NCBI GenBank assembly: GCA_965195285.1
Contig: CBDAFS010000031.1
Location: 125,262-189,261 of the forward strand
Origin: an uncultured Aminicenantes bacterium
GTDB taxonomy: Bacteria; Acidobacteriota; Aminicenantia; UBA2199
Direction of reading: 5' to 3'
Length of the DNA: 64,000 nt
Shown: piece after piece, positions 27,545 to 54,659 of the stretch
How the letters are laid out: each line of letters opens with the position of its first letter
How positions within the stretch are numbered: position 1 is the stretch's first letter
Made by a program: the position numbers and the translations under genes
The notes under the pieces: model-generated
What the model was told of the DNA's origin: nothing
What the model saw: the letters and a program-made list of their open reading frames with translations, nothing else
Database searches by the model: none

Positions 27545-28212
27545 AGCGTATGGTGTCTCTGGAATTCCGGGTTATTTTTAAGGATTTTGATGATGAATTC
27601 CACCCGTCTGTTTTTTTGTCTGCCTGCGGGATTGTCCGATCCGTCCTCTTTCTGGTTGGGTGCAATCGGTTTGGTCTCACCGTATCCGAATATCCCGAAC
27701 GAGTTCCCGGGTAGTGTCGAATTTTTGATGATCCAGTCTTTTACCGATTGTGCTCTTTTCAGCGATAATTTGTGGTTATAGGCTTCGCTTCCCCTGGAAT
27801 CGGTATGCCCGCTGATGTTGATTCCAGTGCTTTTATAGGCATTGATTAATTTAACCACTTTTTTCAATTCGGCTTCGGCATCTTTTCTGATGTTCCACCG
27901 GTCAAAGTCAAACAACACATCCCCGGACATGGCGATCTTTATCTCGGTATCGGTTATGGTTGCATTCAGGTCTTTCAGATTTTTATTTATTTCCTTTTGA
28001 TCAAAATTCAATTCGGAAACAACTCCGATTATGGCCACCACTTTGGATGATAAGGTCAATGCCCCCCGGTCCGGTCCCAGTGTTTTTAAGGCCTTTATGG
28101 CTTTGGGGTGGGCATCCGGGGGTATCAAAGAATCCTGTTCTGCTTTTGTGTTGATGGTGATACAGATGATGAGAATAAAAATTAATCCGATCAACCGTAG
28201 TTTGTTTTCCAT
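27508..28212 (-). CDS. OmpA-like peptidoglycan-binding domain protein
   Basis: VLFDFD, GHTDSRGSEAYNHKLSLKRA, GYGETKPIAPN, NRRVE. Confidence 0.9.
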   Translation of the reverse strand: MENKLRLIGLIFILIICITINTKAEQDSLIPPDAHPKAIKALKTLGPDRGALTLSSKVVAIIGVVSELNFDQKEINKNLKDLNATITDTEIKIAMSGDVLFDFDRWNIRKDAEAELKKVVKLINAYKSTGINISGHTDSRGSEAYNHKLSLKRAQSVKDWIIKNSTLPGNSFGIFGYGETKPIAPNQKEDGSDNPAGRQKNRRVEFIIKILKNNPEFQRHHTLQSSQPHSSRDR

Positions 28213-28226
28213 TTTATTTGTTATTT

Positions 28227-28682
28227 TTAAGTCAGTTTTATTTCCTCAAAGGGTAAAAAACCGGGAATTGAAATGGATATTGATTCGGGGTTGTCAACGG
28301 GCAACGGAAACTTGGCCCAGATATTTTTTATTTTCTGTGGCTTGATCCAGGATTCGAACCGGCCGCCCGAGCCATCGGAACTGAAGGGGCCGCCAATGCA
28401 TTTGGCTTCCGAATCTTTCAAGATATAGTATTTTTTTTGATTGGCTTCATCGATGATATAAAAATCTTTAAAATGAAAATCCAGTTTTACACTTTCATTA
28501 CCGTTGTTTCTAATCTTGATCTTGACAGTAATGATGTTGTTTTTAATCGTCAGTCCGGTGAGTTCGGCAACAATATCTTCATTATCGGTTGATTCCTGGG
28601 TCTGAATGATACCGGCGTTGAGAGAGCCGAATCCGAAAACCAGAATAAACATCAGCCATAGGACTCCGTTTTTTAAATTCAT
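28227..28682 (-). CDS. Secreted hypothetical protein co-transcribed with the OmpA-domain gene
   Basis: GAGGAGG RBS, signal peptide, WAKFPLP...ISISIPGFLPF; Ig-like beta pattern. Confidence 0.7.
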   Translation of the reverse strand: MNLKNGVLWLMFILVFGFGSLNAGIIQTQESTDNEDIVAELTGLTIKNNIITVKIKIRNNGNESVKLDFHFKDFYIIDEANQKKYYILKDSEAKCIGGPFSSDGSGGRFESWIKPQKIKNIWAKFPLPVDNPESISISIPGFLPFEEIKLT

Positions 28683-28868
28683 TTTACCTCCTCTATGGAA
28701 ATTCATATTTGATAAATATTCAATCGGGTCATTATTCCCATAATAAAGTATAGATCATTGCCTGTCAAGAGCAAGCGTGTGGGGCAGAAACCGTCCCCTG
28801 TTTTCAACTTAGGATTCACTGGTACTAATTACTGGCCCCCAAATCCCATTGAAATATTATGTCGTGGA

Positions 28869-29828: not shown

Positions 29829-29973
29829 TTTTTCCTCCTTTTCCTTTTTTGTACTGTTCTTTTAGGAAATTCAAATGTTATTATGTTACCGCATAAAAAA
29901 TACTCGATTTATTCATAGATCTATTTTAAGAGGAAATCAAACCAAAATCAACCCAAACACTGCCCCCCATTAC

Positions 29974-30002
29974 TTGACAAAAAATTATATTTGGTGTAAT
30001 TT
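29974..30002 (+). promoter_or_regulatory. Sigma70-type promoter for the riboswitch/TBDR operon
   Basis: TTGACA-17 bp-TAATTT directly upstream of the riboswitch. Confidence 0.6.
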
Positions 30003-30004
30003 TA

Positions 30005-30112
30005 AAATTCATACTCCGAGCCTTGTTTGCTAACGCATCCCTGCCAGGCAACTGGGCCGATAGGGCATAAAGGGAAACCTTTATCGCCTGCCGTGTTTGC
30101 AAAGGAGGATTT
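30005..30112 (+). promoter_or_regulatory. Moco-class (molybdenum/tungsten cofactor) riboswitch
   Basis: CTCCGAG 5' end, CCAG-GCAA-CTGG GNRA hairpin, GGGCATAAAGG-GAAA-CCTTTATCGCCT stem, and 3' GCCTGCCGTGTTTGCAAAGGAG (consensus GCCTCCCGT...GGAAAGGAG with a compensatory change); P1 CTCC/GGAG sequesters the RBS. Confidence 0.78.
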
Positions 30113-30113
30113 T

Positions 30114-32048
30114 ATGATTAAGAGAGTTATTTTTTTATTTTTTTTCTCATTTTTTTCATCCTTATTCCTTTTTCCGGATTCAAAAGATGATGACAAACAA
30201 CCGGTATCACACCCCTCTTTTACCGAAGAGATTGTGGTTGAAGGTGAGATTGTATCTAAAACCGCAACGGTATCTACTATAACCGCAAAGGAAATTGAAG
30301 AAAAAGGTGTGAAAAATGTTGCTGAAGCTTTGGAATTGATACCCGGGGGTTTTGTTCGGGTCGGTGGAAGCGGAGAGGCTTATATCCGCATCCGCGGTTT
30401 TCGTCAAAGGGAAATTGCCCTGTTAATTGATGGTATACTCATTAGTTCGCCTTATAATGGTCAATTGGATTTGAGCAGTATCCCGGTCAATACCATTGAC
30501 CGTATTGAGTTGGTAAGAGGCGCATCTTCACTGATGTATGGGCCCAATACCATGGGTGGGGTAATTAACATTATCACCAAGAAAAGCAGTGGTGCTACCG
30601 AGTTTAGTATGACCAATGAATACGGGAGCGGAGATACCGGCAAGGTGGGGGCTTATCTTCAAGGTGGAATCGGTTCCCTTCGTTATATGGTTGCGGGTAG
30701 CTACTTTAATCAGAATGAATATCTGCTTTCAAGGAGTTATGAAGAACAAGAAAATCAGGGAAGTGGAGCCAGAGCCAATAGTGACCGGAAAATTTGGAAT
30801 TCTTCGGTTAGTCTGGGCTGGGATATGGGTAAGAAGAGTCGGGCAACCTTTCATTTCAGTCACATTGACCAGGTTCGGGGCCTGCCGCATCATGAGAGTG
30901 ACCCCAGGGCAAAATTTCGACGATATACTGATTGGCAGCAGGGAATGGTCGATTTTATTTTTGATACCCATTTTGGCAACAGTTCATTAAAGGCAAAAGT
31001 TTATTACGAATATTTAAATCACACCCTGGATAACTATGATGATATGAGCTATTCAACTCAAGACAATCAGAAATCGACAACAGAAAGCATGAAAAATTAT
31101 GCCATGGGAGGTGATCTGTTTTACCGCTATCATTTTAACCAACGGCTGCTCTTTAAATCGGCACTTCGCTTCCGCTATGACCATAACAAATCCCGCCCCG
31201 ATTTCTCCGATCCCTGGGGAAGTCATGCATATAATATATTTTCAATCCCTCTGGAAATAGAATGGAGAGGAACAGATATACTCCTCATTTCAGGAGGTGC
31301 GTCTTTTGATCTGATGAGTTTTGATAAAGGCCAAGATTTAGGATCCCGCACCACAAATAGCTTTAATCCTCAACTTGCCCTCATGGTATTTCCCATCAAA
31401 ACCTTGAGTTTTAAAGCCACGGCCTCCCACAAGACCCGTTTTCCAACAATCAGGGAACTGTTCTCGCTGGATTCGGGAAATCCTGATTTAGAACCCATGA
31501 CTGCAGATATCTTTGAATTGGGGGCTGAATGGAGAATTAACCCGAAATGGTCAGTTTCACTTTTGGGTTTTTACAATAACATCAATGATCTGATTGGTCG
31601 CTCCAGCAAAGACGATCCCTATGATAATATTGACAAAGCCGTTTTCAAGGGATTTGAAGCCGGCATGGAATGGGATAACCAAAATTGGATTATACTCAAA
31701 CTTTTTTATACCTATCTTGAGGCTATTGATAAATCACCAACAAGTTCAGGGTATATTGAACATAGACCGCGGCATAAGATCGATACTTCCATAGCGATTA
31801 AGTTGCCGTCTCAGTTCTACATAAGCGCAGATATCGGTTATGTGTCATCACAGCTCTATTATAGTGATGAAGAAGAAGAACATCTGGATCCTTTTACCCT
31901 TATTGATTTGTGCCTGACTAAAAAAGTAGGGCGCTTCATGGAGTTTTTTGTGACGATTCGTAATCTATTCGATGTAATTTATTATGAAAGTGAAGGATAT
32001 CCCAGAGAAGGGAGAATAATCCTTGGTGGCTTTCGTTTAACCCTATAA
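30114..32048 (+). CDS. TonB-dependent outer-membrane receptor
   Basis: Signal peptide, EEIVV TonB box-like, plug IRIRGF..IDRIELVRGASSLMYGPNTMGGVINIITK, GNPDLEP, RNLFD; ATG 30114 follows AAGGAGG. Confidence 0.92.
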   Translation: MIKRVIFLFFFSFFSSLFLFPDSKDDDKQPVSHPSFTEEIVVEGEIVSKTATVSTITAKEIEEKGVKNVAEALELIPGGFVRVGGSGEAYIRIRGFRQREIALLIDGILISSPYNGQLDLSSIPVNTIDRIELVRGASSLMYGPNTMGGVINIITKKSSGATEFSMTNEYGSGDTGKVGAYLQGGIGSLRYMVAGSYFNQNEYLLSRSYEEQENQGSGARANSDRKIWNSSVSLGWDMGKKSRATFHFSHIDQVRGLPHHESDPRAKFRRYTDWQQGMVDFIFDTHFGNSSLKAKVYYEYLNHTLDNYDDMSYSTQDNQKSTTESMKNYAMGGDLFYRYHFNQRLLFKSALRFRYDHNKSRPDFSDPWGSHAYNIFSIPLEIEWRGTDILLISGGASFDLMSFDKGQDLGSRTTNSFNPQLALMVFPIKTLSFKATASHKTRFPTIRELFSLDSGNPDLEPMTADIFELGAEWRINPKWSVSLLGFYNNINDLIGRSSKDDPYDNIDKAVFKGFEAGMEWDNQNWIILKLFYTYLEAIDKSPTSSGYIEHRPRHKIDTSIAIKLPSQFYISADIGYVSSQLYYSDEEEEHLDPFTLIDLCLTKKVGRFMEFFVTIRNLFDVIYYESEGYPREGRIILGGFRLTL

Positions 32049-32060
32049 GGAGAAATTCAT

Positions 32061-33329
32061 ATGTCATTAAAAATTTTGGTTATGTTGTCTTTGTTATTGT
32101 TTCAAAACATTTCTGCAGCGGAAAAGGAATTATTGGTACAAAACGCCCGCTTTTATTCAGCCAATACAGTTGATATTAACCGGGATGGTATAGTTGAAGT
32201 TATTGCTGCCGGTCAATTGAATCATGGGAATGAAAAAAACCATTCGGCCTATATTGCTGTTTTCAAAAGAGATAACGGTTCATTTAAAAAAGTGTCCGAG
32301 TTATCCTTCCGCATCTCTCATAAAGGGGCAAATATTTCTACAAGAATCCGCAACATCCAGATCATTCCGGAGAAAAGCACGGGGAGTTTATTTTTTGTTA
32401 CCTCCGGTCGGGCAGGCGAGGATGAAGGCGGAATCGGTTTTATCCAGTATGGTAAACTTCAACAAGATCAGATTTCCATGGACGGGTATCATAAATTTGT
32501 TGATACCCAGGCAAAATATACCCATGGTTATCCCCTGGCTATTGGAGACCTGAACGGTGACCGGAAGCCTGAAATTGTTTATGGAGGGTTTGTGGGAACT
32601 GAAAAAGGAGATCGAGCCGATATTCATGTCTTTAGATTCGAAAAGGGTAAACTTAAAGAAGATAAAATTGCTTTTTCTTCTCTCAAAATTCCCCTGCGGG
32701 TAAATGCCATCGTGATTGGTGATCTGGATGGTGACAGTAAAAATGATATTGTTATCGCAGGCAGAACTTTAAAACCAAACGGCAAGGAGTATGCTTCCTT
32801 TGCCTGGGATTCTCAGGGTAAAACCTACCATCATATATTCAATGATGGGTTTCCCAGTCGATTAAGAACTCTGCTGATAATTGATATTGATCAGGATGGA
32901 AAAAATGAATTGGTTACCGGAGGAAGACAAGAATTCGGTAAAATCTGGGTGGCGGACCTTCAAATCTGGAATATCAATGATAATGATGCTAACTTATCCG
33001 ATCGTTTCTTCTGGAGCTCTGGTCATCAAATAAGATTGCGGGCAATCTCGCCAATAAAAAACCAGCCCAACCATTTCAGGGTCGCCGGAAGAGTTGAGTA
33101 TAGAAGAAAAGATGGAAGTGTTGGATGGTCCGGTTTTATCAGGTCTTTTGGAAAAGAGAATGGCTCTTTTCAGCCGGTTTCTGGTTTAGAGTTGTTTGAT
33201 TTTGGCCATGAAACTCGTATCCGGGATCTTCATCTGGCCGAAAGTGGTGATACGGTTCTTGCCGGTTTTGGTAAAACCAAAGCAGGACAAAACTTCGGAT
33301 TCATCCGTTTCATAACTGCCAACAAGTAA
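32061..33329 (+). CDS. Secreted FG-GAP/VCBS repeat beta-propeller protein
   Basis: DINRDGIVE, DLNGDRKPE, DLDGDSKND and DIDQDGKNE Ca-binding repeats; 12 bp after the TBDR. Confidence 0.8.
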   Translation: MSLKILVMLSLLLFQNISAAEKELLVQNARFYSANTVDINRDGIVEVIAAGQLNHGNEKNHSAYIAVFKRDNGSFKKVSELSFRISHKGANISTRIRNIQIIPEKSTGSLFFVTSGRAGEDEGGIGFIQYGKLQQDQISMDGYHKFVDTQAKYTHGYPLAIGDLNGDRKPEIVYGGFVGTEKGDRADIHVFRFEKGKLKEDKIAFSSLKIPLRVNAIVIGDLDGDSKNDIVIAGRTLKPNGKEYASFAWDSQGKTYHHIFNDGFPSRLRTLLIIDIDQDGKNELVTGGRQEFGKIWVADLQIWNINDNDANLSDRFFWSSGHQIRLRAISPIKNQPNHFRVAGRVEYRRKDGSVGWSGFIRSFGKENGSFQPVSGLELFDFGHETRIRDLHLAESGDTVLAGFGKTKAGQNFGFIRFITANK

Positions 33330-33339
33330 AACCTGATTT

Positions 33340-35254: not shown

Positions 35255-35268
35255 TTGAATTTCTCCTT

Positions 35269-36812: not shown

Positions 36813-36851
36813 AAATTTTCAAATGTTAAAATGAAAGAACTGACCTCCGTT
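36813..36851 (+). repeat. Flank family A: AAATTTTCAAATGYTAAAATGAAAGAACTGACCYCG
   Basis: Near-identical copy at 44771-44808, partial copy at 39973-39990. Confidence 0.85.
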
Positions 36852-36871
36852 ACAACCAACCGTCCCCCCGT

Positions 36872-39663: not shown

Positions 39664-39664
39664 A

Positions 39665-40547: not shown

Positions 40548-40873
40548 TTTAATCCTGTGTCCACCATAATTAGAAATTTTGTTTTTCTCAAACATGAAAT
40601 ATACGCGGAACCACGGTTCATTGTCAATAGACGAGTGAAAAAATGGAGGTTATGTTATCTCGTAACCTGAATATCCTTTAAGTTCAGGATATACGATATG
40701 TGGATTCCCAAAATAAAGAGAAGAATATATTAAAAAGAGAACCGTCCCTCTTTTTTTATAATTTGAAATAATTAAAAAATTAAAATCCCGTCCCTGGTTC
40801 AGCTCAAAAGACCGTCTCCGGTTTTCTAATGAAAAATTCAGCTTTTTTTTATATCCTTGAAAAATAAATATAA

Positions 40874-41654: not shown

Positions 41655-41735
41655 TTCTTCCCCTTTTCCCAAATTCAATTTTCGCCAATCAAAAACAAAA
41701 TGTCAAATTGTCAATCACCATCACCCCTGGTTTTT
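41655..41735 (+). repeat. Flank family E: TTCCC..CAAA(A)TT.AATT.TCCGCAAT.AAGAAAAAA.TGTCAAATTGTCAA
   Basis: Diverged copies at about 50194-50267 and 54574-54640. Confidence 0.7.
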
Positions 41736-42736: not shown

Positions 42737-43027
42737 CCAGTTTTTAAACTTTACCTTAACCTTTGCCTTTACCTGATTTCTTTACCATACACCGCCCCTG
42801 TTTTTTTTGTTTTGAATTTTGATCATTTGGATTTTGTGCTTGTTTCGGATTTAGAATTTCGTGCTTCGGATTTTCTTTTTTCTTACTTCTGTTTAATAGA
42901 GAATCAATACTTCAAAAGACCATCCCCCATTTTTCCAGCGGAAAGCAGGCCCGAATTTTTTTCCACTTAAATTCCGTGATATGGTACAATCGGTTTGGAT
43001 CAAGCAAGATCCATAAAGGAGTGAAAA

Positions 43028-43351: not shown

Positions 43352-43389
43352 CGTACAGGAGTCCCGTCCCCGGTCCCTGGTTTCCCGGT

Positions 43390-44706: not shown

Positions 44707-44807
44707 GATCTCCCTCCAAGCACTTTTTCCTGTATTACTTCTTAAAAGATTATATTACAAAGAATTTATGAAATTTTCAAATGCTAAAATGAAAGAACTG
44801 ACCCCGT

Positions 44808-45323
44808 TTATACACCGTCTCCCATACTCTTAAGTATCGTAAGAATCCTTCCGAAGAAGATCCGGTGATAGTCCTGATCAGGATAATTCCTCTGAATCTT
44901 ATCATCCAGAAAATGTTTGGGATCCATGTCCTGCCAGTAGATCTTTTTACATTCCAGAATCAGGTCCGCCTCCTTAAAGGCCGGGGCCTCCACCTTTGTT
45001 GACGGGATGACGGTGAGGCCGGATTCTTTGATCTTATCGCTATTCCGCCCGGACCTGGTGCCCAGAAAATTCACCGCCTCACGGTACTGCTCAGGAAAAG
45101 TGCAGAGGGTGAAGGTGTCATACTTGTTGATAAATTCATAGGTAAACCGGGAGGGCCGTACCACCACCTGTACAAAGGGCCGGTTCCACATCCCCCCCAT
45201 GCTCCCCCAGGCCACGGCCATGGTATTGTAGTGTTCACGGTCCCCGGCGGTCAGTAGAAACCACTTCTTAAGCCATGTATCAACCGGCTGAGTAGTAAAA
45301 TCCAGTACCTTGATCTCTTTCAT
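44808..45323 (-). CDS. Flavin reductase-like FMN-binding protein
   Basis: WFLLTAG..YNTMAVAWG, VRPSRFT, GTRSGR, YHRIFFGRI. Confidence 0.88.
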   Translation of the reverse strand: MKEIKVLDFTTQPVDTWLKKWFLLTAGDREHYNTMAVAWGSMGGMWNRPFVQVVVRPSRFTYEFINKYDTFTLCTFPEQYREAVNFLGTRSGRNSDKIKESGLTVIPSTKVEAPAFKEADLILECKKIYWQDMDPKHFLDDKIQRNYPDQDYHRIFFGRILTILKSMGDGV

Positions 45324-45417
45324 CGTTTTACTCCTTGGTAAAAATATCTTGATCCTTTTTCTGTTGTCTTTAATCTATTTTAAATTTTCAAATTGTAAAG
45401 TACAATCCCCATTTTTT

Positions 45418-45445
45418 TAAAGTCAAGAAGTCAAGCAACGTCCCT
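45418..45445 (+). repeat. Flank family B: TAAAGTCAAGAAGTCAAGCAMCGTCCCT
   Basis: Copy at 48063-48090 differs at one base. Confidence 0.85.
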
Positions 45446-45458
45446 ATTTTCATATAAA

Positions 45459-46451
45459 TTAGAGAATCAATGCTTCAAAAGACCGTCCCCGGTTTTCCGG
45501 TTTTTTATTTAACGCTTCATAAACAGCTTTCGAGATCTGAATGTCCTGAACGGCTACTCCGGTTAGATCTGCAATTGTGATCTGGTCATCCGACAACCTT
45601 TGCAGTTTTTTACTGGCAATCACATTTCCCAGTTCAACAACATCCTCTTTACTGATTACACCGGCTGAAATGGCCTTGAATATTTCTCCCCGGACAAGAC
45701 ACTGGCTAATGCTGTCGGCAGCAATGATGTCAGCTCTTTGAAGAATTTCCGGGTCCAACTCGATTTTTGTCAGGGTATCAGAACCCATTGCAGTGATGTG
45801 TGTTCCTTTTTGAAGTGTTTCCGCTTTTAACAACGGTTTCTTTGAGGGCGTAGCCGTAACGATTAAATTGCAGGAAGAAAGTACTTCATCGGTATTCAAG
45901 GTTGTTTCAATATTAAATCCCTCCGGTTCCATATCCGTTCTATATAAATCCAATTCTTTTTGATTCATTCCCCAGACAATAACATCTTTACATTCTACGA
46001 CAGGCTTTAAGTATTTAAGCTGTAAACGTCCCTGCACACCCGCGCCGACAATACCAATACGGTGAACAGAATCAGGGGCCAGATATTTTGCAGACACTGC
46101 TCCTGCCGCTGCTGTCCGAATCTCCGTCAGGTAGCATTCATCTAATAAAACTGACAGGAGCTCTCCGGATCTCTGGTTAAAAACAAGCATTAATCCGCTG
46201 CCTGTAGGGAGACCGAACTTATGGTTTTCGTAAAAACCGGAAGCGATTTTTATCACATAATAATCATCATTTTTTATGTAGCCATATTTAATGTGAACTT
46301 CGCCGGGGGGATTGTCAAATGTCATTTCTCCTACCGGGGGAACAACAACTTTCCCCTGCGAATAATTGACAAACCCTTCTTCCACCGCTTTAACAACATC
46401 AATATTTTTTAAAGCTCTCTTTATCTGGTTCAATTTATATATTTTAACCAT
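45459..46451 (-). CDS. Ornithine cyclodeaminase / mu-crystallin family protein
   Basis: LTEIRTAAAGA, GAGVQG, HITAMGSD, DLTGVAVQDIQI. Confidence 0.9.
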   Translation of the reverse strand: MVKIYKLNQIKRALKNIDVVKAVEEGFVNYSQGKVVVPPVGEMTFDNPPGEVHIKYGYIKNDDYYVIKIASGFYENHKFGLPTGSGLMLVFNQRSGELLSVLLDECYLTEIRTAAAGAVSAKYLAPDSVHRIGIVGAGVQGRLQLKYLKPVVECKDVIVWGMNQKELDLYRTDMEPEGFNIETTLNTDEVLSSCNLIVTATPSKKPLLKAETLQKGTHITAMGSDTLTKIELDPEILQRADIIAADSISQCLVRGEIFKAISAGVISKEDVVELGNVIASKKLQRLSDDQITIADLTGVAVQDIQISKAVYEALNKKPENRGRSFEALIL

Positions 46452-46562
46452 TAAATACTCCTGTGTGCATTTTGCCTGTTTTGAAAATAAATCAAATACA
46501 AAGAAATATTGCCAGAAAACAGTTAAAATTACAAAGAAAATATTAAAAATGCAACGCCCGTA

Positions 46563-46614
46563 CCCGGGTTTTTGTTGAAGATGAGATGATGGGAGGATGA
46601 GAAGATGAGGGGAA
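46563..46614 (+). repeat. Purine-rich direct repeat of about 50 bp (family F)
   Basis: CCGGGTTTTTGTTGAAGATGAGATGATGGGAGGATGAGAAGATGAGGGGAAA also at 47991-48042. Confidence 0.9.
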
Positions 46615-46680
46615 AAATGTTTTTTTTGTTTTCCTTAACCTTTACCTTTGCCTTTACCTGAGCACCGTCTCCCATTTTCT

Positions 46681-46711
46681 ATAAAGTCATAAAGTAAGGC
46701 ACCGTCCCTCG
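46681..46711 (+). repeat. Flank family C: ATAAAGTCATAAAGTAAGGCACCGTCCCTCG
   Basis: Identical copy at 50858-50888, partial copy at 47930-47950. Confidence 0.88.
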
Positions 46712-46766
46712 GTTTCCGTAACTTTTTTGCTTTTTTATTCGTCTTATACAGAAGAAGGAGTGACTC

Positions 46767-47885: not shown

Positions 47886-48237
47886 GGCCAATTTATTGAA
47901 AAAAATGGGAAAAACAAAAACCTTGAATGATAAAGTAATGCACCGTCCCTATTTTTCTTCGAGTAATTGTAATGCTCTGGAATCCTGTCACCGGGTTTTT
48001 GTTGAAGATGAGATGATGGGAGGATGAGAAGATGAGGGGAAAGAAAAATGTCCCCATTTTCATAAAGTCAAGAAGTCAAGCACCGTCCCTCGTTTCTCCG
48101 TCCCTCGTTTCTCTGTTTTGGGCGATATGTTTTTTGAGGATGGTAATGAACTGTTAATCGGCGTCTACCATTTAAAAAAACTCTTTTTGCACCCGATACT
48201 ATGTTTCTTCTTAAATAATAATTCTTTTAAAAAAAAC

Positions 48238-48316: not shown

Positions 48317-48350
48317 CAGAGGGTTGCTCGTTCAACCCTCTGTTTTATTT
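48317..48350 (+). terminator. Intrinsic terminator-like hairpin in the NYN 5' leader
   Basis: CAGAGGGTTG-ctcgtt-CAACCCTCTG followed by TTTTATTT, just before the ATG. Confidence 0.65.
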
Positions 48351-48358
48351 AGAAATTC

Positions 48359-48976: not shown

Positions 48977-49135
48977 TGGTTATATAGGTGTACTCTGAAT
49001 TAATCTTATTTAATCAATAAAGGTCAAAAGTTGATTTTTTTAAAACGATGATTGTTACTACCTTTAACTAAGACATTACCTAATTTTATTATATATATCT
49101 TGATCCTGATGGACGTCCCTGGTTTTCTTTTTTAA

Positions 49136-50134
49136 TTATTTTTCCTTCGGCGAAGTATCATTATATGATTCCACCATAATTTTATAGTATCCCATTTCAT
49201 TAATTTTTTTGACAAGCATTAAAACTTCGGAATAGGGTAATGATTTAGAGGCTCGTATGGAAATAGCTTGATCCGGTTTCAGTTTCAATTCCTGTTTTAA
49301 CCAGTATTCAATTTTTTCCGTTTTAGATGGAGAACCATCCAGTAGAATCTCACTATTTTCTTTTATGGTGATCACATGCTTTTTTACTTTGGTTTCAGAA
49401 GTTATGTCCCTGTTTAAGGGAGTAATGCGCCGGGCAAACTCTCGAAATTTTTCTATTGCTTCTTTTATTTTGGGATTGGTTGAATATTGCATTACTTTCC
49501 ACACGGCAGTATAGAATTCTGGCATTACATCCTGATCCATTCTTCTCTGCAACTCTTTCAATTCTTCCGGCACTTTACAGGTAATGATTTTACTGAGTTC
49601 AGTATGTTTCTCCTTGAATTTGAAAGTAAGCTCCTTGCTCTGATTTACCATTTCGTCTGTTTTGTTCTGAGTTTTTTTCAGGGAAGTATCCAATTCATTA
49701 ATAGCGGTTTTTATGTCTCTATCACTTTCAGTTTTGTTTATTTCATTTTCAAATGAATCTATAGATTTTCCCAATCCTTCTGATATATTCGAATTTGCTT
49801 TCTCACTTAAAATTTCAATCTCATCTTTCAATGCCTTCATTTCTTCTATGGCTATGAAATATGCTGGTACTTGGTTCACCAGGCAATTAAGTTCCGGAAA
49901 TTTTATTTTTATTTCGGTTATATCCGTTTCCAGATTTTCCATGTTTTTGGTGTACCATTCAAGTGTCGATTTTATGTTCTTGTTTTCATCGTCCTGCAAT
50001 TTTGACGAAAATGATTCGGTTAAGTTGATATACTGACTTATAACTTTTTTGGCGTTGGCGTATTCTCCACCATTGCATTTAATTAACCCCAGTACGATTG
50101 CTGCTAATGTTGAAACCCATAATAATTTTTTCAT
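49136..50134 (-). CDS. Putative lipoprotein: helical body plus C-terminal ExbD/TolR-like periplasmic domain
   Basis: Signal peptide with LIKC; C-terminal ITIKENSEILLDG...ISIRASKSLPYSEVLMLVKKINEMGY. Confidence 0.6.
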   Translation of the reverse strand: MKKLLWVSTLAAIVLGLIKCNGGEYANAKKVISQYINLTESFSSKLQDDENKNIKSTLEWYTKNMENLETDITEIKIKFPELNCLVNQVPAYFIAIEEMKALKDEIEILSEKANSNISEGLGKSIDSFENEINKTESDRDIKTAINELDTSLKKTQNKTDEMVNQSKELTFKFKEKHTELSKIITCKVPEELKELQRRMDQDVMPEFYTAVWKVMQYSTNPKIKEAIEKFREFARRITPLNRDITSETKVKKHVITIKENSEILLDGSPSKTEKIEYWLKQELKLKPDQAISIRASKSLPYSEVLMLVKKINEMGYYKIMVESYNDTSPKEK

Positions 50135-50402
50135 GATCTCCTCTCCTGAAAAATTACCTCTCCCTGTTATGTTTGAGGGAAACTGCGAATTCTTTCCCTT
50201 CTTCAAATTCAATTTTCCGCAATTAAGAAAAAAATGTCAAATTTCCAAGTTTCAAGGCAACGTCCCTCTTTTTTACCATGATACCTTTAATATTCAACCT
50301 GGTAGTCAAAATATAAATGTAGACAAACGCAGATCACCTCGAGAGAGTATTTTTTTAAGATGGAATTGAATTCTAAGAATTAAGTATGGTGTCCCTGGGA
50401 TT

Positions 50403-50792
50403 TTACTCTTTCAAGAGCAGCACCGCCAGGGAGACTTCCGCCGTTCCCAGGGCGAAGTAGAGGATCTGGAGCCAGTGGCCTCCGCCGATCATGTTCACCT
50501 GTACGAAGAGCCAGATGATCAGACCCAGGCCCATGGCCGCCGCAGCCGGTTCAAACAGGCGGTGGCGTTTCAAACCCATGACCAGGGCCAGGAAATGGCC
50601 CAGGCCGATAACTCCGGAGAGTATGAGACCCGGCCAGAAAAAATCAGTGAAGGGCGAGCCCTCCAGCATGGAGACCGGCATCTCCTTTACAATTCCCCGG
50701 GGAAAGACCATCATTATTATCCCGCTGACAATGGCGCTCAGGGCCACAAAACCCAGAAGCCCGATTTCAATGATCCGTACTGTTTTTTTCAT
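50403..50792 (-). CDS. Hypothetical membrane protein
   Basis: Four hydrophobic segments, LEGSPFTDFFWPGLIL; GAGGAG RBS. Confidence 0.75.
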   Translation of the reverse strand: MKKTVRIIEIGLLGFVALSAIVSGIIMMVFPRGIVKEMPVSMLEGSPFTDFFWPGLILSGVIGLGHFLALVMGLKRHRLFEPAAAAMGLGLIIWLFVQVNMIGGGHWLQILYFALGTAEVSLAVLLLKE

Positions 50793-50920
50793 GAACACTC
50801 CTCAGCAAAAAAAAAATGTAAATCCCGTTCCCGGGTTTTTGTAAATAGGTGATTACCATAAAGTCATAAAGTAAGGCACCGTCCCTCGTTTTTTGTTACG
50901 ACTATGCACGGTTTTTTCAA

Positions 50921-52048
50921 TCATTCTTCAAATTTCTTTAGAATCCAATCCAAGGCTGAAATGAATTTTTTAAACTCAGATTCTTTATCAAGTAAGTGTA
51001 ATTGAAAGCTTGGATATTTTTCGATTACTTCTTCTGATAAATTTACTCCCTCAATTGTATTAATCATATTAAGGAGTTCTAATCGATTTTTTTCATCCTG
51101 GAATTGTGGATAAGATTTGAAATTTCCGAATTGTAATTCAACATATCCATTATTAAATCCGGTTCTTACTCCTACAGTCCAGTATGTATTGTTTTTACAA
51201 TCAAACATCGGGTAAAAGGATCCATTATGAATCCCTTCTCCCCACCATAATCTCAAATTTTTACTTTTTGCCCAATCAAGAATATTTTTTGCAACTATTG
51301 CCTCATATTTATCTTCTCTTTGTCGCAGTACTTTCATAAATGATTCTTCATCCCATTTTTTCTTTTTTCTTATTCCCTTCTTCACCTGCGCCTGCTGGGT
51401 TTGGCCCACAACGCGGGGAACCATGGATTTGAAGCCTTCGCCCACAAACTGCTTGATCTCGATGGCAATGACCTCGGCTGGATCCATTTGCTCATTGAGA
51501 AATTCCACGATTCTTTTTAATTCGGAGGGGATGATATCAGCCACAAAAACCAGCCTGACTTTTCCGGCCTGGAGGTTGGTCTTGACCTGCTGCCAGAACT
51601 CTTCCGGGTCGTGCTCCTCTCCGATTAAATTCTGGATCTCCTGGTCCGGGTCGGTTTCATTGGCCTGGCAATGGGCTTCGAATTTACTCTGAATTTTTTC
51701 AATGGGCCAGTAGATGATGGCATTGGCAGCATAGTCCAGCATCTGTCCCACCACTTCCCGGCGAATCCGGGTGTCGCTGCTTCGCTTTACTTCCACCAGG
51801 GTAGGGATGCCGTCCTGGTCCAGAAACAGGTGGTCCACACTCCAGCGGTTTTCCGAATCTTCGGAAGAAATTTCCATCTCCCGGGAAATCAGCAGCCACT
51901 GTCTGGGCTCATCCTGATCAATCTGATCCCCGGCCAGAAGGTCCGGATATTTTTCCAGTAGTTCCTGCAGCAATGCCTCCGAATCATAACTGGCCTCTTC
52001 CATCTTTACCAATTTATCATCCTTAATCAAAAAAATCCCTCCGGACAT
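50921..52048 (-). CDS. NucS/EndoMS-like PD-(D/E)XK nuclease domain protein with variable C-terminal domain
   Basis: SEALLQELL, VDHLFLDQDGIPTLVEVKR...REVVGQMLDYA. Confidence 0.72.
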   Translation of the reverse strand: MSGGIFLIKDDKLVKMEEASYDSEALLQELLEKYPDLLAGDQIDQDEPRQWLLISREMEISSEDSENRWSVDHLFLDQDGIPTLVEVKRSSDTRIRREVVGQMLDYAANAIIYWPIEKIQSKFEAHCQANETDPDQEIQNLIGEEHDPEEFWQQVKTNLQAGKVRLVFVADIIPSELKRIVEFLNEQMDPAEVIAIEIKQFVGEGFKSMVPRVVGQTQQAQVKKGIRKKKKWDEESFMKVLRQREDKYEAIVAKNILDWAKSKNLRLWWGEGIHNGSFYPMFDCKNNTYWTVGVRTGFNNGYVELQFGNFKSYPQFQDEKNRLELLNMINTIEGVNLSEEVIEKYPSFQLHLLDKESEFKKFISALDWILKKFEE

Positions 52049-52101
52049 ATAGTACCTTCTTATTTTGGCAATTGTTTGGTTATTTTTATCATAATAATTA
52101 G

Positions 52102-53277
52102 TTAATATACTTTGACATCATATCCGAAAAATCTAAGTCCACTATTCGAATTCCGGTTTATCATAGGATATTTATCAGGGTAAAACCAAGAAATCAACTC
52201 TTGTATTGACGATTTACCAAAATAAGCTAGATTTTTTTTACATTCTTCCATTCTCTCAATAATATTCACCTCTTTATTATGTAATAACTTATTCCATTCA
52301 TTTATTATTCTATCAGCAGAATTATTTAACGGATTTAGAAATCTTGTTTTATTTAATGGAAAACTTTTCATACAATGTAATGATTTCACGACCGCTTCTA
52401 TGTCTGCTTTATCAAGTAGGTCAATACTCTTTTCATTTAATCTTCCTTGAATTATTTTTATTCTATCTAACCTGTAATCTTCAGTATTCGGATTTCTATT
52501 TAACCAGTTTTTAAAAGCAATAACATATTTTTCAATTTCTCTTTCATGTTGTAAATCTGAAAGAGGACGATATGGTTTTACTAAGTACTTTTTGGAAGGA
52601 ATTTTATCATGTTTATGAAAGAGAAAATCGAAAAATGCATCAATTTCATGTAAAACCGAGAGTTCTTTTAAGAGCCTATTAGTTTTTTTAATATATATAA
52701 TTTTAAAATTATTATAAGCATTCAAATATTTCTCATACTCTTTAAAAACTCTTATTTTTTGTGGCAGTTCTGGTAATTCCCAAAGTTTTTTCAATTTTTT
52801 GTTAGAACCGGGTTCCTCTCGTGAATCTTTTTTCTTTTTTTCAATTGGTTTCCAAAGTGGATCAATTATTGGACTTATTTTCCATAAATTTTGAAATAAA
52901 ATTTCAAGTCCTTCAGGAATCTTTTTGAAGAGAAATCCCAATTCATGACGCCTTTCAAATGCCGCTCCTGTTAGATTTGCAGAAGTCAAAATAGCAGATT
53001 CATCAAAAATATATAATTTGGCATGAATTCCATCAAGTGTTCGAATTTCGCCACTCAACCTAAATTTATTAAATGTTTCCTGATCGATATGGGAACTATT
53101 TCTAATATCAGTTATTAGCTTTTTTTCTACTTGAACATTGTATATCCATTTCGTTCCTAATATTCTTTGAACTTGTGTCCAAGATCCGATAAATGGAGAA
53201 ATAATATAAATTCTTTTCTTGGATTTTTCACAAAATTCTCTAACTGTATTTACAAGGCTTTGTCCATATAGAATCAT
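52102..53277 (-). CDS. Phospholipase D-family (single HKD) nuclease, restriction-endonuclease-like
   Basis: IISPFI, IHAKLYIFDESAILTSANLT...ELG. Confidence 0.75.
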   Translation of the reverse strand: MILYGQSLVNTVREFCEKSKKRIYIISPFIGSWTQVQRILGTKWIYNVQVEKKLITDIRNSSHIDQETFNKFRLSGEIRTLDGIHAKLYIFDESAILTSANLTGAAFERRHELGFLFKKIPEGLEILFQNLWKISPIIDPLWKPIEKKKKDSREEPGSNKKLKKLWELPELPQKIRVFKEYEKYLNAYNNFKIIYIKKTNRLLKELSVLHEIDAFFDFLFHKHDKIPSKKYLVKPYRPLSDLQHEREIEKYVIAFKNWLNRNPNTEDYRLDRIKIIQGRLNEKSIDLLDKADIEAVVKSLHCMKSFPLNKTRFLNPLNNSADRIINEWNKLLHNKEVNIIERMEECKKNLAYFGKSSIQELISWFYPDKYPMINRNSNSGLRFFGYDVKVY

Positions 53278-53346
53278 CTCTCTCTCCTATATAAAATCTA
53301 TTATTTATAAAATAATTAACTAAAATTAAATTCAAAGCAATAAATA

Positions 53347-54468
53347 CTATAATTCTTCAGTTTCACATGACTCTGAAATTTCTTCAAGGTATTCCGGTTT
53401 TATGTATCTTATAATAGTTGATATTTTTTTTACTTCATCTTTTAGTGTGGAGAAAGAAATGTATCTGCATATTTCTAAAAGTGGTGTTTTTAATCTAGAA
53501 AAAGTGGGTCTATTTACTTCTGTTATTACCTTATTTCTTCTATCATCTGGGGCAACAAGATATAATGGCATATTTAAATTTGGCTGCATTGTTATTAAAT
53601 CAGACATGCGTAATAATCCTGAATAGATGGATGTAGTGCTTTCAATTTCAAAAGCAGCAACAATAGCATTCCCTTTCAACCAAAGAACATCTATTAGTTC
53701 AATAGTTTTATTGGTTGCATCATCAAATTGTAATGGGAGTTCATTTTTTATTCGAGATATTTCTAATAATTTCTTTCCCTTATAAATTTTATTTCGATCA
53801 TTTCTTGCCACCCAAACATCGAATCCCATATCGCTTCCAAGCTTCAATAAAATTGCTTGGATTTCAGTATGTTCGTTTACCTCTTTTGTTATTTGTTTGG
53901 GTTGATCCATTATTTCATCTTCTTCTTTTTCCAATTCTTTTTCTGGAATTGTAATAGATCCGATTTTTGTTTTAATTGATCTTGGTCTCCTTAACAGTTT
54001 CTTCTGATCAACCGGTCTAATAATTGGATTTTTTTTTGCTTCAAAAAGAGCATTTACAACTGCTTCTCCATCTTCTTTTTTCCATAATGCTGGTGAACCA
54101 CGGAAATGCCCAGTCCATCCCCTTTTTTTTTCTAGATCTAAAAAGAAACTTAGTTTATCTTTCAATTCATAAACTGGGACAGCAGTTTCAGGTGTAAGCT
54201 CTAAAATGATTTTTGCTTTAACTCTGCATGGGAAAATATCATCTTCCCAGATATATGCATCATCTTTGAAGGCCTCTGAAAAAATTTCCAAAACTCCTAT
54301 AAATCGAGAAACTCCGGTTAAATAACAAAGAAAATAATCACCAATTTTTACTTTTTGTAATATTTTCCACCTAGATTCTCTAAAACCAGAAACATGTCCT
54401 CCTGCTTTTTTAAATTCGATCCAGGATTTCCCTGTAAAAAGATCTAACCAATAATTCCTTTCACTCAT
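53347..54468 (-). CDS. EVE domain + PD-(D/E)XK nuclease (putative modification-dependent restriction)
   Basis: NYWLDLFTGKSW...KIGDYFLCYLTG EVE domain; IDVLW...AFEIESTTSIYSGLLR nuclease motif. Confidence 0.78.
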   Translation of the reverse strand: MSERNYWLDLFTGKSWIEFKKAGGHVSGFRESRWKILQKVKIGDYFLCYLTGVSRFIGVLEIFSEAFKDDAYIWEDDIFPCRVKAKIILELTPETAVPVYELKDKLSFFLDLEKKRGWTGHFRGSPALWKKEDGEAVVNALFEAKKNPIIRPVDQKKLLRRPRSIKTKIGSITIPEKELEKEEDEIMDQPKQITKEVNEHTEIQAILLKLGSDMGFDVWVARNDRNKIYKGKKLLEISRIKNELPLQFDDATNKTIELIDVLWLKGNAIVAAFEIESTTSIYSGLLRMSDLITMQPNLNMPLYLVAPDDRRNKVITEVNRPTFSRLKTPLLEICRYISFSTLKDEVKKISTIIRYIKPEYLEEISESCETEEL

Positions 54469-54659
54469 TAAATTTCCAATTTTTTATTGATATTGAATAA
54501 TTAATATAAATTTTATCACAAACATATTATATTAACTCAACATCCAGAACTCAACATAAAAAACTGATTTCCTTTCCCCTTTCTTCAAAATTAATTATCC
54601 GCAATCAAGAAAAAATTGTCAAATTGTCAAGCACCCTTTTTTTCACGCCTTTTTCACTT

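Follow-up and report, generated by a model that had tools for sequence, protein, structure and literature searches.

The CGTCCC motif that recurs at gene boundaries in the window (the whole 64-kb stretch of DNA analysed here) is very probably, at about 85%, the outer tip of the terminal repeat of small Y1 (HUH) units of the TIRtron/TIRYT type, which are TnpA-Y1 subclass 2.1-like and related to the REP-associated RAYTs, and the window would then hold a one-way pile of their loose ends. CGTCCC is the conserved outer tip of a non-palindromic module of ~35-40 nt that, from inside to outside, is composed of an A-run, two co-varying 8-nt direct repeats, GCAC and CGTCCCC; the tip can take the form CGTCCCC, CGTCACCC or CTGACCCC. 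Conservation around the core spans about -24 to +14, and similarity between copies ends at about -37/+12. The 8-nt repeats vary among paralogues and agree within one unit. Some of the sequences that a first-pass annotation had listed as variants of a single motif were found to be distinct sub-families: CTGACCCC is the end of another transposase paralogue, and CGTCTCCC at 46666 comes after TTTACC-type repeats.

Across the genome, eight inverted CCGTC-type pairs, 960-976 bp apart (~970), each surround one Y1/HUH ORF, and a ninth Y1 gene lies between a CTGACCCC pair 922 bp apart. A complete unit is ~1 kb long, with a single gene between two ends in inverted orientation, the ends being ~25-45 nt from the start or stop codon of the single enclosed ORF of 290-313 aa (~300 aa; frameshifted in the C21 unit). 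The paralogues within the genome share 42-59% identity. Pfam Y1_Tnp was matched by 13/13 aligned proteins (best E 2.3e-14), with H59/H61 (NHYH), Y118..N122 P123 and W137-S138-S139 invariant. The AlphaFold model (pLDDT 86) has the E. coli REP-associated transposase 4er8_A as its top match (E 4.8e-6, TMt 0.68), followed by the TnpA proteins of IS608 and ISDra2. A model of the C-terminal 98 residues (pLDDT 85) best matched DNA-bound DnaA domain IV (3pvp, 1j1v, 8btg; TM 0.63-0.65, rmsd 2.2-2.4 over 80 columns), a predicted likeness with weak Foldseek E-values of only 0.4-0.8; a PDB search with a sequence profile of the domain gave no meaningful match (E 1.9), and Pfam helix-turn-helix families matched only 1/13 family members. 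The first-pass annotation had guessed that an ssDNA HUH enzyme acts in trans and had proposed looking for Y1_Tnp/RAYT genes carrying the motif at their ends. Because inverted motif pairs surround these nine Y1/HUH genes, that guess was correct. The 64-kb window contains no Y1 transposase gene, and since it holds loose ends only, these must be served in trans.

Loose ends are far more numerous than complete units. The whole genome has about 127 copies of the module on both strands (80 + / 48 -), of which about 110 are loose ends besides the nine complete units, arranged singly, in inverted doublets spaced ~75 nt apart or in head-to-tail stacks. The repeats of resident units were matched, within 4 mismatches, by 50/112 loose ends; the remaining 62/112 represent further families for which this assembly, 95% complete, contains no cognate gene.

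Within the window, CGTCCC occurs 17 times on the + strand and five times on the - strand, TGTCCCC 3/0 (+/-), CGTCTCCC 3/0 and CTGACCCC 1/1. Fifteen of the 16 CGTCCCY matches are on +, and shuffles gave 8.9 +/- 3.2 (3/100 shuffles reached 16); the bare count is weak evidence, and the strand bias and clustering are strong. A position matrix spanning -24..+14 around the core found 14 copies of at least 16 bits at 40743-50880, on the + strand without exception, and no match of at least 8 bits in 1-29.9 kb, in keeping with the earlier statement that intergenic DNA of 1-27 kb is largely motif-free. Twelve copies of at least 20 bits fall within 10.3 kb, compared with 0.4 expected at genome density (P about 2e-14). 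Every gene boundary in the 40.6-50.9 kb stretch (11/11) has a copy, whether full or partial; these copies are all on a single strand, and the units between are mostly single genes. With about 10 partial copies added to the 14 strong ones, all on +, the true family members occupy 36.8-54.6 kb (Table 1). The earlier description of a polar motif clustered at gene boundaries was thus sound in its clustering, strand bias and boundaries, but the motif is not specific to this region, and the figure of about 30 copies from 27.5 kb was too high: the extended motif is missing around the hexamers at 27.5-36 kb. Hexamers at 28792, 34041, 38668, 46027 and 58491 were rejected as family members, either lacking the extended motif or being intragenic. 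The window island has a highly variable gene content, partly of defence type, with loose ends in short spacers. The gene functions first listed were right by Pfam, and the visible differences in GC were real (0.28 to 0.53 per kb).

Table 1. Module copies in the window; C0 positions label the copies, and bits are position-matrix scores.
Feature	Position	Strand	Composition	Setting
CTGACC-type end copy	36813..36869	+	CTGACC 36840-36845, then bare CCGTCCCCCC core 36860-36869; upstream words are those at the ends of the C61 transposase unit	3 nt from stop of gene 36872-38572
Three stacked copies	40719..40830	+	C0 40743 (18 bits), C0 40789 (24.5 bits), partial CCGTCTCC 40812-40819	Downstream of HhH-GPD gene stop (40874-41632, - strand)
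Full copy	41695..41733	+	30.9 bits, TGTCAA-type repeats	Repeat yields a -35-like TTGACA facing HhH-GPD gene
Variant and full copy	42744..42935	+	TTTACC-repeat with core ACACCGCCCC 42789-42798; C0 42921 (33 bits)	
Core-only copy	43360..43380	+	CGTCCCC at 43365	18 nt from stop of gene 43390-44706
CTGACCCC-type copy and adjoining partial core	44775..44822	+	16 bits; CCGTCTCC 44815-44822	Abuts stop of flavin reductase gene (44808-45323)
Head-to-tail triple	45380..45498	+	Full copies C0 45404, 45439, 45484; 31-32 bits each; three different sub-families	
Three-part group	46535..46717	+	Small-hairpin copy C0 46559 (22 bits); TTTACC x5 then CACCGTCTCCC 46635-46672; full C0 46703 (30 bits)	
Two copies	47920..48113	+	C0 47944 (22 bits); full C0 48084 (38.8 bits), tip duplicated in tandem, 15 nt (48083-48113)	
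Core-only copy	49100..49128	+	CGTCCCT at 49114	15 nt from stop of gene 49136-50212
Full copy	50237..50275	+	33.9 bits, TTTCCAAG/TTTCAAGG repeats	
Two copies	50802..50894	+	Weak hairpin-type C0 50826 (10.8 bits); full C0 50880 (37 bits)	C0 50880: 34 nt from stop of gene 50921-52048
Truncated copy	54611..54641	+	Both 8-nt repeats and GCACC kept; CGTCCCC tip absent	Contig of run X6 continues from 54635 with letters completing the tip

One-strand polarity, first proposed as a property of the array, is a genome-wide rule tied to local gene direction and GC skew. CCGTCCCC lies on the negative-GC-skew strand in 28/39 clusters (P = 0.009) and antisense to the local gene majority in 31/39 (P = 0.0003), genes in these statistics being crude longest-ORF calls. 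The cluster-level bias is 72-79% rather than absolute, and copies in one cluster are not independent. In clusters of at least three, 59/69 copies are on their own cluster's majority strand. In the commonest setting, the tip is a median of 88 nt from the stop codon of one neighbour and 281 nt from the start of the other.

Comparison with related genomes indicated that whole units are mobile. The C9 unit is missing at the orthologous site of the closest relative, G003 (~95% identical), where the empty site has ...GCCC and then the same flank; the right junction falls exactly after ...CCGTCCCC. Conversely, a unit 91% identical to the C15 unit is present in G002 at the position corresponding to window 3833/3843, where the studied genome has none. 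In the 240 kb aligned to G003 there were no strong copies against 9.3 expected (P about 9e-5, or 0.03 when counted by clusters), and the window beyond 36.8 kb, like two other clusters, was not found in G003 save for flanks, one gene and short repeat matches. The copy clusters examined lie in islands that were largely not found in same-genus genomes, which have 6-10 pattern matches vs 54 here, low counts that may partly reflect assembly, as these are fragmented MAGs of 270-520 contigs.

This variability raises the question of whether the array captures genes in the manner of an integron, as the first-pass annotation had inferred. Here, same-strand ends would serve an HUH enzyme as initiation/termination or recombination sites, and the DNA between two motifs, usually one gene, would be excised as an ssDNA circle and reinserted at the outer edge of another end, stacking unrelated genes. 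The boundaries of 40.6-50.9 kb have the expected layout, and a cleanly empty site and three strain differences bridged by contigs have their edges no more than 13 nt from the motif's outer edge. With contigs of near-identical strains from one other study included, three alleles start at position 40799, 5 nt beyond the core of copy 40789: 76 nt in the studied genome, 5 letters in X7 and X9, and in X6 an insert of 1,343 nt that ends in a copy of another sub-family, then the same 10 letters as the short allele. As the alleles have these 5 nt in common, the core edge itself may be the point of joining. X6 and X7 have other DNA in place of a ~1.06-kb segment (43753-44812); that DNA ends in a different motif sub-type, and the boundary at 44813 is 8 nt beyond the CTGACCCC core. 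Colinearity with other strains' contigs stops at 50892/50894, 6-8 nt beyond the copy 50880 core. G003 has the HhH-GPD gene at 94% identity between flanks that are unrelated on both sides, with homology stopping at 41711, inside copy 41719 (41695..41733). In G002, two genes that are neighbours in the studied genome are separated by a ~2-kb block; it contains small ORFs and five copies on the same strand, and its right edge is at the tip of a CTGACC-type copy. In rolling-circle plasmids, directly repeated HUH Rep nick sites delete intervening DNA. Nevertheless, we consider such cassettes unlikely. In a 300-kb sample compared with G003, 20/22 gene-sized indels had no copy of at least 12 bits in them or within 150 nt, and one of the two exceptions was a transposase unit itself, contrary to the expectation that units are gained and lost exactly at the motif; the indels at 17310-28830 and 29865-33337, within the range first proposed as the array, do not have their edges at strong copies. 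The motif is absent at the orthologues of the flavin reductase gene in G001 and the HhH-GPD gene in G003, and the beta-propeller gene in G001 has another sub-type in the opposite orientation, so the motif, unlike attC, does not move together with the gene. Many copies form head-to-tail stacks or inverted doublets without genes, and no island unit is duplicated elsewhere in the genome, where shared repeats are all <100 nt. Breaks at a transposon end would likewise be given by ordinary end-adjacent insertions or deletions, and the strain evidence consists of contigs, which break at repeats and in which no circle junction was seen. What stands of the integron-like proposal is a polar junction element tied to an HUH enzyme acting in trans, the variable island and some strain edges near the motif; the loose ends could drive gene stacking.

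Two further readings are less likely still. Classical REP/BIME elements or REPINs of a RAYT, palindromic extragenic hairpins read as ssDNA stem-loops, would fit the closest enzyme fold, the inverted doublets, and repeats that are extragenic, multi-copy, mostly 3' of genes and inverted around the transposase gene. We regard this as highly improbable: when 10 window copies were folded as ssDNA, 9/10 were no stabler than shuffles (z -0.7 to +1.1; 0 to -3.8 kcal/mol) and a single copy reached z = -2.3, the internal repeats are direct rather than inverted, the GTAG tag is absent, and the ~300-aa proteins have an additional DNA-binding tail. It is just as hard to sustain that the motif is an immobile host promoter, terminator or transcription-factor site, polar only through co-oriented genes. 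Copy orientation does track gene direction, TGTCAA-type repeats read TTGACA on the gene strand and supply 3/8 of the best promoter-like matches in 40-55 kb (41706, 50240, 54622), and the tips at 45479 and 46556 are 4-5 bp hairpins followed by T-runs. However, promoter-like sites show only a modest excess (58 vs 44 +/- 6 in shuffles), only 2/20 terminator-like sites coincide with copies, and no Rfam family matched the module copies. Moreover, nine transposase genes (eight CCGTC-type, one CTGACCCC-type) have the identical module, with sub-family-specific repeats, as their inverted ends, whole units vary in presence among relatives, and 240 kb of conserved sequence has no copies.

For the terminal repeats of Y1 units, a likely course of events can be inferred, including what binds the repeats, where the nick falls and which strand is active. 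The DnaA-domain-IV-like helix-turn-helix at the C-terminus would read the 8-nt repeats of its own sub-family, and the N-terminal HUH/Tyr domain would nick a single strand at the outer edge of the common C-rich core. Ends may then be copied or joined beside CCC-ending sequences, including the tip of an earlier copy, which would produce same-direction stacks. The orientation rule may arise because the enzyme acts on whichever strand is exposed as ssDNA at the replication fork, or through selection relative to transcription. If the ends are recombination-prone edges, this would help explain why island differences between strains begin at them; Logan contigs from one other study suggest that loose ends, and not only whole units, are mobile.

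The closest known elements are TIRtrons/TIRYT, TnpA-Y1 subclass 2.1 and the 'Group 1 RAYT' of Bertels et al. 2017, a known yet poorly characterised class of which the elements described here are a further member. As described in the text of Di Nocera et al. 2013 (PMC3733652), TIRYT genes are flanked by long TIRs with a common GGGGWSAS, and TIR families occur as singles, dimers and clusters; the text of Quentin et al. 2018 (PMC6006769) gives subclass 2.1 an NH[YF]H motif, Y---NP and a Bac_DnaA_C-like tail. By these descriptions, the units here share the RAYT-like Y1 gene, the long non-hairpin terminal inverted repeats with a tip at or near GGGGWSAS, the moderate abundance of ends as singles, dimers and clusters, and the NHYH, Y---NP, WSS tail and DnaA-C-like helix-turn-helix. 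Unlike TIRtrons, they comprise eight CCGTC-type paralogous units and one CTGACCCC-type, each with its own 8-nt direct-repeat pair, an architecture not found in the text passages of PMC3733652 and PMC6006769. Their one-way stacking in variable islands is strong, their proteins are ~300 aa vs a subclass 2.1 median given as 238, and their commonest tip, GGGGACGG, is one position off the published GGGGWSAS, with an exact fit only for the GGGGTGAC and GGGGTCAG types. REP/BIME-RAYT systems (REPtrons, REPINs; Proteobacteria) share the 4er8 fold and cognate enzyme-repeat pairs; their single-copy gene likewise lies between inverted repeats, and their extragenic copies number dozens to hundreds, mostly past stop codons. 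Their enzymes cleave at C|T beside the repeat in vitro and perform strand transfer (PMC8266576). In contrast, the elements here have no palindrome and no GTAG, direct repeats replace the stem, a DNA-binding domain is added, and most copies are one-orientation singletons rather than inverted doublets.

More distant systems resemble the units in single features. IS200/IS605 elements (IS608, ISDra2) share the Y1 HUH catalytic core by fold match, insertion beside a short target resembling the element's own end (one case, C9/G003) and an orientation bias as expected for lagging-strand-template elements according to PMC6006769, but their sub-terminal hairpins, lack of terminal inverted repeats, ~150-aa enzymes and high-identity copies are not features of the units here. 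Integrons (IntI, attI, attC) likewise have polar arrays of unrelated, mostly single-gene units between short recombination-prone repeats, with strain-level gain and loss beside the repeat. Here, however, there is no attC-type folded site, genes point both ways, the repeat does not move along with its gene, and the enzyme is an HUH nuclease encoded elsewhere; as the first-pass annotation had stated, there is no integron integrase, with nothing at the TIGR02249 cut-off in the whole assembly. In the double-strand origins of rolling-circle plasmids and viruses and in one-ended HUH elements (IS91/ISCR), protein-binding direct repeats adjoin the nick site, and two direct-orientation nick sites delimit an excisable segment. 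The units here differ in having no evidence of replication, a single catalytic tyrosine (Y1) and complete units with inverted ends.

The same build extends to other lineages. Full-length homologues in their MAGs are 33-81% identical (best tblastn segment), and inverted ends flank 8/8 testable ones, with GGGGACGG or GGTGACGG, a 3-nt spacer and two ~8-nt repeats. A similar one-direction array with opposite-strand genes was found in another genus (G007:C127), and G015 has a head-to-tail triple of copies.

CGTCCC occurs 17 times on the + strand of the window and five times on the - strand, and the longer CGTCCCY 15 times and once. The latter total of 16 compares with 8.9 +/- 3.2 in dinucleotide shuffles, 3 of 100 of which reached 16 (about 2 sd). 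The first-pass annotation had described a one-sided motif at most gene boundaries from 27.5 to 54.6 kb; this is borne out in part, the hexamer being present, one-sided and clustered with an extended module. We rejected chance as its source, and judged the motif real, on the strength of the clustering and of the module around the core rather than the weak hexamer count. Alignment of all 113 intergenic CGTCCC[CT] sites in the whole assembly (3.28 Mb, 62 contigs; crude ORF calls) gave conservation from about -24 to +14 around the core, in the order A-run, two similar 8-nt words, G/C-A-C, core, two free positions and T/C-rich run, and similarity between copies stops at about -37 and +12. A refined position matrix returned 128 sites of at least 20 bits genome-wide (80 on +, 48 on -; 127 once merged), and 76 of 2,084 intergenic gaps (3.6%) hold a copy of this strength. 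Twelve such copies fall in 10.3 kb of the window against 0.4 expected, which upholds the proposed clustering. At 16 bits or more, 14 copies were found in the window, every one on the + strand, between 40743 and 50880, with about ten partial or variant copies beyond these. Upstream of 29.9 kb no match reached even 8 bits, in line with the scarcity first noted for the early window. The hexamers at 28792, 34041, 38668, 46027 and 58491 were rejected as family members, as they lack the module or lie inside genes. An Rfam scan of the window returned only the Moco riboswitch and no family for the motif copies; no tRNAs were found in the window, and a tRNA-fragment reading of the motif was dropped.

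Elsewhere in the genome, inverted copies of this module bracket Y1_Tnp genes, bearing out the suggested link to HUH (Y1)/RAYT enzymes. Eight pairs of ends in '-' then '+' order lie 960-976 bp apart, each around a single ORF (CCGTC-type units), and one further pair, of CTGACCCC type, encloses a single ORF with its ends 922 bp apart (contig C61). The enclosed ORFs encode 290-313 aa, with that on contig C21 frameshifted, and about 25-45 nt separate the repeat from the start or stop codon. The 8-nt words are identical at both ends of a unit and different between units, for example TGTCAAAA/TGTCAAGC, ATACAAGA/ATACAAGC and AAGTAATA/AAGTAAGG. Pfam Y1_Tnp was recovered in 13 of 13 proteins (seven CCGTC-type proteins of this genome, the C61 protein of CTGACCCC type and, from other MAGs, five homologues), the invariant residues being N58, H59 and H61 (NHYH), Y118, N122 and P123 (Y..NP) and W137, S138 and S139 (WSS). 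The CCGTC-type paralogues are 42-59% identical to each other and 27% identical to the C61 protein. Full-length homologues at 33-81% identity (best tblastn segment) occur in MAGs of other lineages, titled Aminicenantes, Acidobacteria, Chrysiogenales, Spirochaetota, 'Clostridia' and others, and inverted ends of the same build flank the homologue gene in all eight testable loci. Separately, we observed about seven further C61-type Y1 genes with no detectable ends in this genome, and 62 of the 112 loose ends (copies outside transposase units) make up at least six repeat sub-families for which this 95% complete assembly contains no transposase unit, chief among them TTTCCAAG/TTTCAAAG (11 copies) and ATCAATAC/TTCAAAAG (9 copies).

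The predicted structure of the enzyme (pLDDT 86.4) was nearest to 4er8_A (E 4.8e-6), the E. coli REP-associated tyrosine transposase in complex with a REP hairpin, followed by the IS608 and ISDra2 transposases. A separate model of the last 98 residues (pLDDT 84.9) came closest to DnaA domain IV on a DnaA box (3pvp/1j1v/8btg; TM 0.63-0.65, rmsd 2.2-2.4 over 80 columns), with weak Foldseek E-values of 0.4-0.8, and a sequence profile of this domain found no match in the PDB.

Together, these features place the system in the TIRtron/TIRYT kind, with an unusually rich internal structure. 'TIRYT' genes within 'TIRtrons' are RAYT-like genes flanked by long TIRs, which have GGGGWSAS in common and form moderately abundant families of singles, dimers and clusters, according to the text passages of Di Nocera et al. 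2013 (PMC3733652). Most TIRYTs were placed in TnpA-Y1 subclass 2.1, described in sections of Quentin et al. 2018 (PMC6006769) as carrying NH[YF]H, Y---NP, a serine-containing tail and a Bac_DnaA_C/HTH tail, with no REP. Here, likewise, a RAYT-like Y1 gene lies between long non-hairpin terminal inverted repeats; NH[YF]H, Y---NP and the serine-containing tail are present, a C-terminal DnaA-C-type HTH is predicted from the fold match, and about 110 loose copies are dispersed as singles, dimers and clusters. The tips GGGGTGAC (C15, C21, C27, C50) and GGGGTCAG (C61) fit GGGGWSAS, and the commonest tip, GGGGACGG, is one position off. In the literature collection searched, TIRYT, TIRtron or GGGGWSAS occurs in only these two papers, and we found no description of the 8-nt repeat pair in the available text of either, whose figures and supplements may show it.

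Other known systems fit less well. REP/RAYT systems (REPtron, REPIN) share a Y1 HUH enzyme of RAYT fold, 4er8_A being the best match, but REPs are imperfect palindromic stem-loops with GTAG and the ends here are neither. When ten window copies were folded as single-stranded DNA, nine were no more structured than shuffles, and the end module is therefore not a palindromic REP; a classical REP hairpin was also rejected on the direct orientation of the internal repeats and the lack of GTAG. IS200/IS605 elements have a TnpA of about 150 aa, sub-terminal hairpins, no TIRs and near-identical copies, whereas the proteins here are divergent and roughly twice that length, between inverted-repeat ends that form no hairpins. 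Nor do the copies resemble integron attC sites, which fold as imperfect inverted repeats, unlike nine of the ten copies, and travel with the cassette, while the motif here does not stay with its gene. The best integron integrase match in the whole assembly (TIGR02249) scored 98 bits against a cut-off of 265, with none on the window's contig, and no recombinase was found among the scanned window ORFs. The initial impression that neither an integrase nor an attC-type structure is visible holds.

Several comparisons located the edges at which DNA differs between genomes. G003, the closest relative (syntenic, with about 95% identity), lacks the C9 unit (a transposase unit on contig C9) at the orthologous site: the unit's right junction comes precisely after ...CCGTCCCC, and in the empty site ...GCCC leads straight into the same flank. 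In G002, of the same genus, a unit sharing 91% identity with the C15 unit sits at window position 3833/3843, where this genome has none, and the break comes after ...CCC. We also aligned contigs of near-identical strains from public runs X6, X7 and X9, all from one study, to the window; run X1 is possibly the source sample and non-independent, and the small-share runs X2-X5 were left out. Joints with short sides (20-42 letters; 40799>54603, 42774>46634, 46701>48098, 48089>50239) were excluded as repeat artefacts, and low depth at 52.1-54.1 kb (X6) or uncovered bins (X7, X9) were not counted as absence. In X7 and X9, 40799 is joined to 40876 with five letters between. One X6 contig carries 1,343 letters at this site, the last 78 of which resemble 42850-42927 (a copy of another sub-family), and then continues with the same ten letters as the short allele. 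In X6 and X7, 43753-44812 is replaced by about 1,081 letters ending in a 50261-type copy, and colinearity resumes at 44813, 8 nt beyond the tip of a CTGACCCC copy. Strain contigs stay colinear up to 50892/50894, which is 6-8 nt beyond the core of copy 50880. Around the HhH-GPD gene, homology with G003 (94%) breaks off within copy 41719. The tip is also often tandemly duplicated, at 48083-48113, at C50 34257/34280 and beside the C12 and G002 units. These data agree with cutting and joining of DNA at a transposon end, and they also fit the stacking of captured genes proposed in the first-pass annotation. They do not separate gene capture from ordinary insertions and deletions beside ends, and they rest on one clean empty site and contigs from one other study.

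The stacking proposal, in full, is that same-strand ends are working nick and join sites for trans-encoded HUH enzymes. Starting at one end and stopping at the next would free the inter-motif unit as a single-stranded circle, and circles or any end-bearing DNA would join at the ...CCC edge of an existing end, giving a growing polar stack of captured genes; Y1 HUH transposases with DnaA-like repeat readers would thereby build the flexible and defence islands of this lineage in an integron-like manner. The strain and relative junctions at or near tips fit this account, which taken as a whole we nevertheless consider unlikely. In a G003 sample of 63 of 520 contigs (300 kb, 240 kb of it aligned), only 2 of 22 internal indels of at least 150 bp had a copy of at least 12 bits inside or beside them, and one of these was the C9 unit itself; gene-sized indels are in general independent of motif copies. 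Moreover, the motif is not bound to orthologous genes: the HhH-GPD orthologue in G003 and the flavin reductase orthologue in G001 lack it, while a different sub-type, in inverted orientation, accompanies the beta-propeller gene in G001. The absence of an IntI and of an attC-type fold likewise counts against the integron analogy, which the tip-associated strain differences support only in part.

The preferred reading is a TIRtron-like family of transposon ends. Across the 240 kb aligned to G003, no copy reaches 20 bits, against 9.3 expected. The window beyond 36.8 kb is mostly not found in G001-G003 (the same-genus genomes), and the clusters at C24 1-12 kb and C62 129-141 kb show the same pattern; motif copies therefore live in the flexible part of the genome. 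The exceptions beyond 36.8 kb are single genes on small separate contigs with unrelated flanks, and matches of about 38 nt to repeats. Window 1-17.3 kb is colinear in G003 and G002. On contig G003:C437, the SPFH gene comes immediately after the gene 14712-17279, with 33338-36339 next in order, so that two extra blocks are present here, 17310-28830 and 29865-33337. No strong copy was found at the edges of either. Relative to G003, the second forms a clean indel flanked by two TTTTA words. The first looks like an acquired island, and iteron-like words at its 17309 junction were too weak to count.

Features in the window and in related loci (window coordinates unless a contig is named)
Feature	Position	Strand	Remarks
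Extra block	17310-28830		11.5 kb; looks acquired; absent from colinear G003:C437; also holds OmpA pair
Five-gene operon within it	17448-27432	+	low GC (31-37%)
Two-gene block	29865-33337		3,473 bp; TonB-dependent receptor and FG-GAP genes
Moco riboswitch (RF01055)	30002-30121	+	64.5 bits; lies ahead of the TonB-dependent receptor and FG-GAP genes
Partial/variant copy	36840	+	CTGACC type
Partial/variant copies	36860, 40812, 42789, 43365, 44815, 46665, 48099, 49114	+	
Partial copy	54631	+	truncated
70-90-nt repeats	42556-42892		common to contigs C16, C30, C42, C44 and relatives G001-G005
8-nt tandem unit GAAGATGA, x4	46577-46609		beside end
8-nt tandem unit GAAGATGA, x4	48004-48036		beside end
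Tip tandem duplication	48083-48113		
Tip tandem duplication	C50 34257/34280		
Promoter-like sites	41706-41678, 54622-54594, 50240-50212	-	-10-like hexamer 17 nt after TTGACA; point at next - strand gene
Defence-type stretch	50921-63506		unknown 375-aa gene, PLD-like nuclease, EVE-domain protein, type I R-M hsdM/hsdS/hsdR, SMC/AAA-like 978-aa ATPase
C21 unit	G000:C21:4997-5965		split into two ORFs (136 + 131 aa), both ends kept; 81% identical to C27 unit (protein)

Copy number was compared using a 13-letter core pattern, with the reversed pattern as control. This genome has 54 matches (control 4), the same-genus genomes G001, G002 and G003 have 10 (4), 6 (3) and 9 (5), and G010, G015 and G017, of other genera in the same family, have 22 (0), 19 (2) and 15 (3). 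A very similar array occurs on G007:C127, again of another genus in the family, where six + copies alternate with - strand genes and two doublets are also present, and G015 has a head-to-tail triple.

The one-strand arrangement described in the first-pass annotation is not peculiar to the window. Genome-wide, loose copies merged into 46 clusters, 39 with a majority strand; CCGTCCCC lies on the negative-GC-skew strand in 28 of the 39 (P = 0.009) and antisense to the local gene majority in 31 (P = 0.0003), and within clusters of at least three, 59 of 69 copies are on the cluster's majority strand. Neighboring copies up to 5 kb apart comprise 47 same-strand, 17 '-+' and 9 '+-' pairs, the '-+' class taking in the transposase units and doublets of about 75 nt. 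Most commonly, the C-rich tip faces a neighbor's stop codon at a median of 88 nt, and at 2-45 nt for several genes in the window.

The mechanism we propose starts from what the analysis established, namely the anatomy of the ends, the enzyme family, cognate pairing, unit presence/absence, the orientation rule and island location. The DnaA-IV-like tail would read the 8-nt repeat pair, and the HUH/Tyr core would nick at the outer edge of the common core, by analogy with TnpA-REP, which in the passages of PMC8266576 cleaves at C|T beside its repeat and transfers strands. New ends would join beside ...CCC, earlier tips included, and would therefore produce same-direction stacks. Orientation might come from use of the fork-exposed strand, as IS608 and ISDra2 do in the relevant text of PMC6006769, or alternatively from selection relative to transcription.

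For the study of how RAYT-like 'domesticated' transposases function and how their repeats spread, this genome is a natural test bed. It combines eight CCGTC-type cognate enzyme/end pairs and one CTGACCCC-type pair that differ in a readable 8-nt code, a predicted DnaA-like reader domain, over 100 loose ends that follow a clear orientation rule, and near-identical strains in public runs whose differences lie at end tips or a few nt from them. If the ends are active joining sites, they would explain single-gene shuffling in the variable islands of these sediment bacteria and provide an HUH-based counterpart to integrons. If not, they nonetheless give a clean and well-delimited view of a repeat class that is poorly known and missed by annotation pipelines.

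A general terminator or promoter role was rejected, as copies overlap only 2 of 20 terminator-like sites and a few promoter-like ones. The TGTCAA-type repeats read as TTGACA toward the next gene and account for three of the eight top promoter-like matches between 40 and 55 kb; judged from sequence, loose ends may act as portable promoters, with promoter delivery as a side effect.

Among minor observations, neither the 70-90-nt repeats nor the GAAGATGA tandem beside ends matched Rfam. None of the defence-type genes was found in G001-G003. Finally, locus L020 of G002 (G002:C104, 1779-3800) is a block of about 2 kb that carries four small ORFs along with five end copies, all on one strand, and is located between the NYN and MscS genes that are adjacent in the window at 34084-34204; the ends of this contig overlap, as if circularly permuted or tandem.
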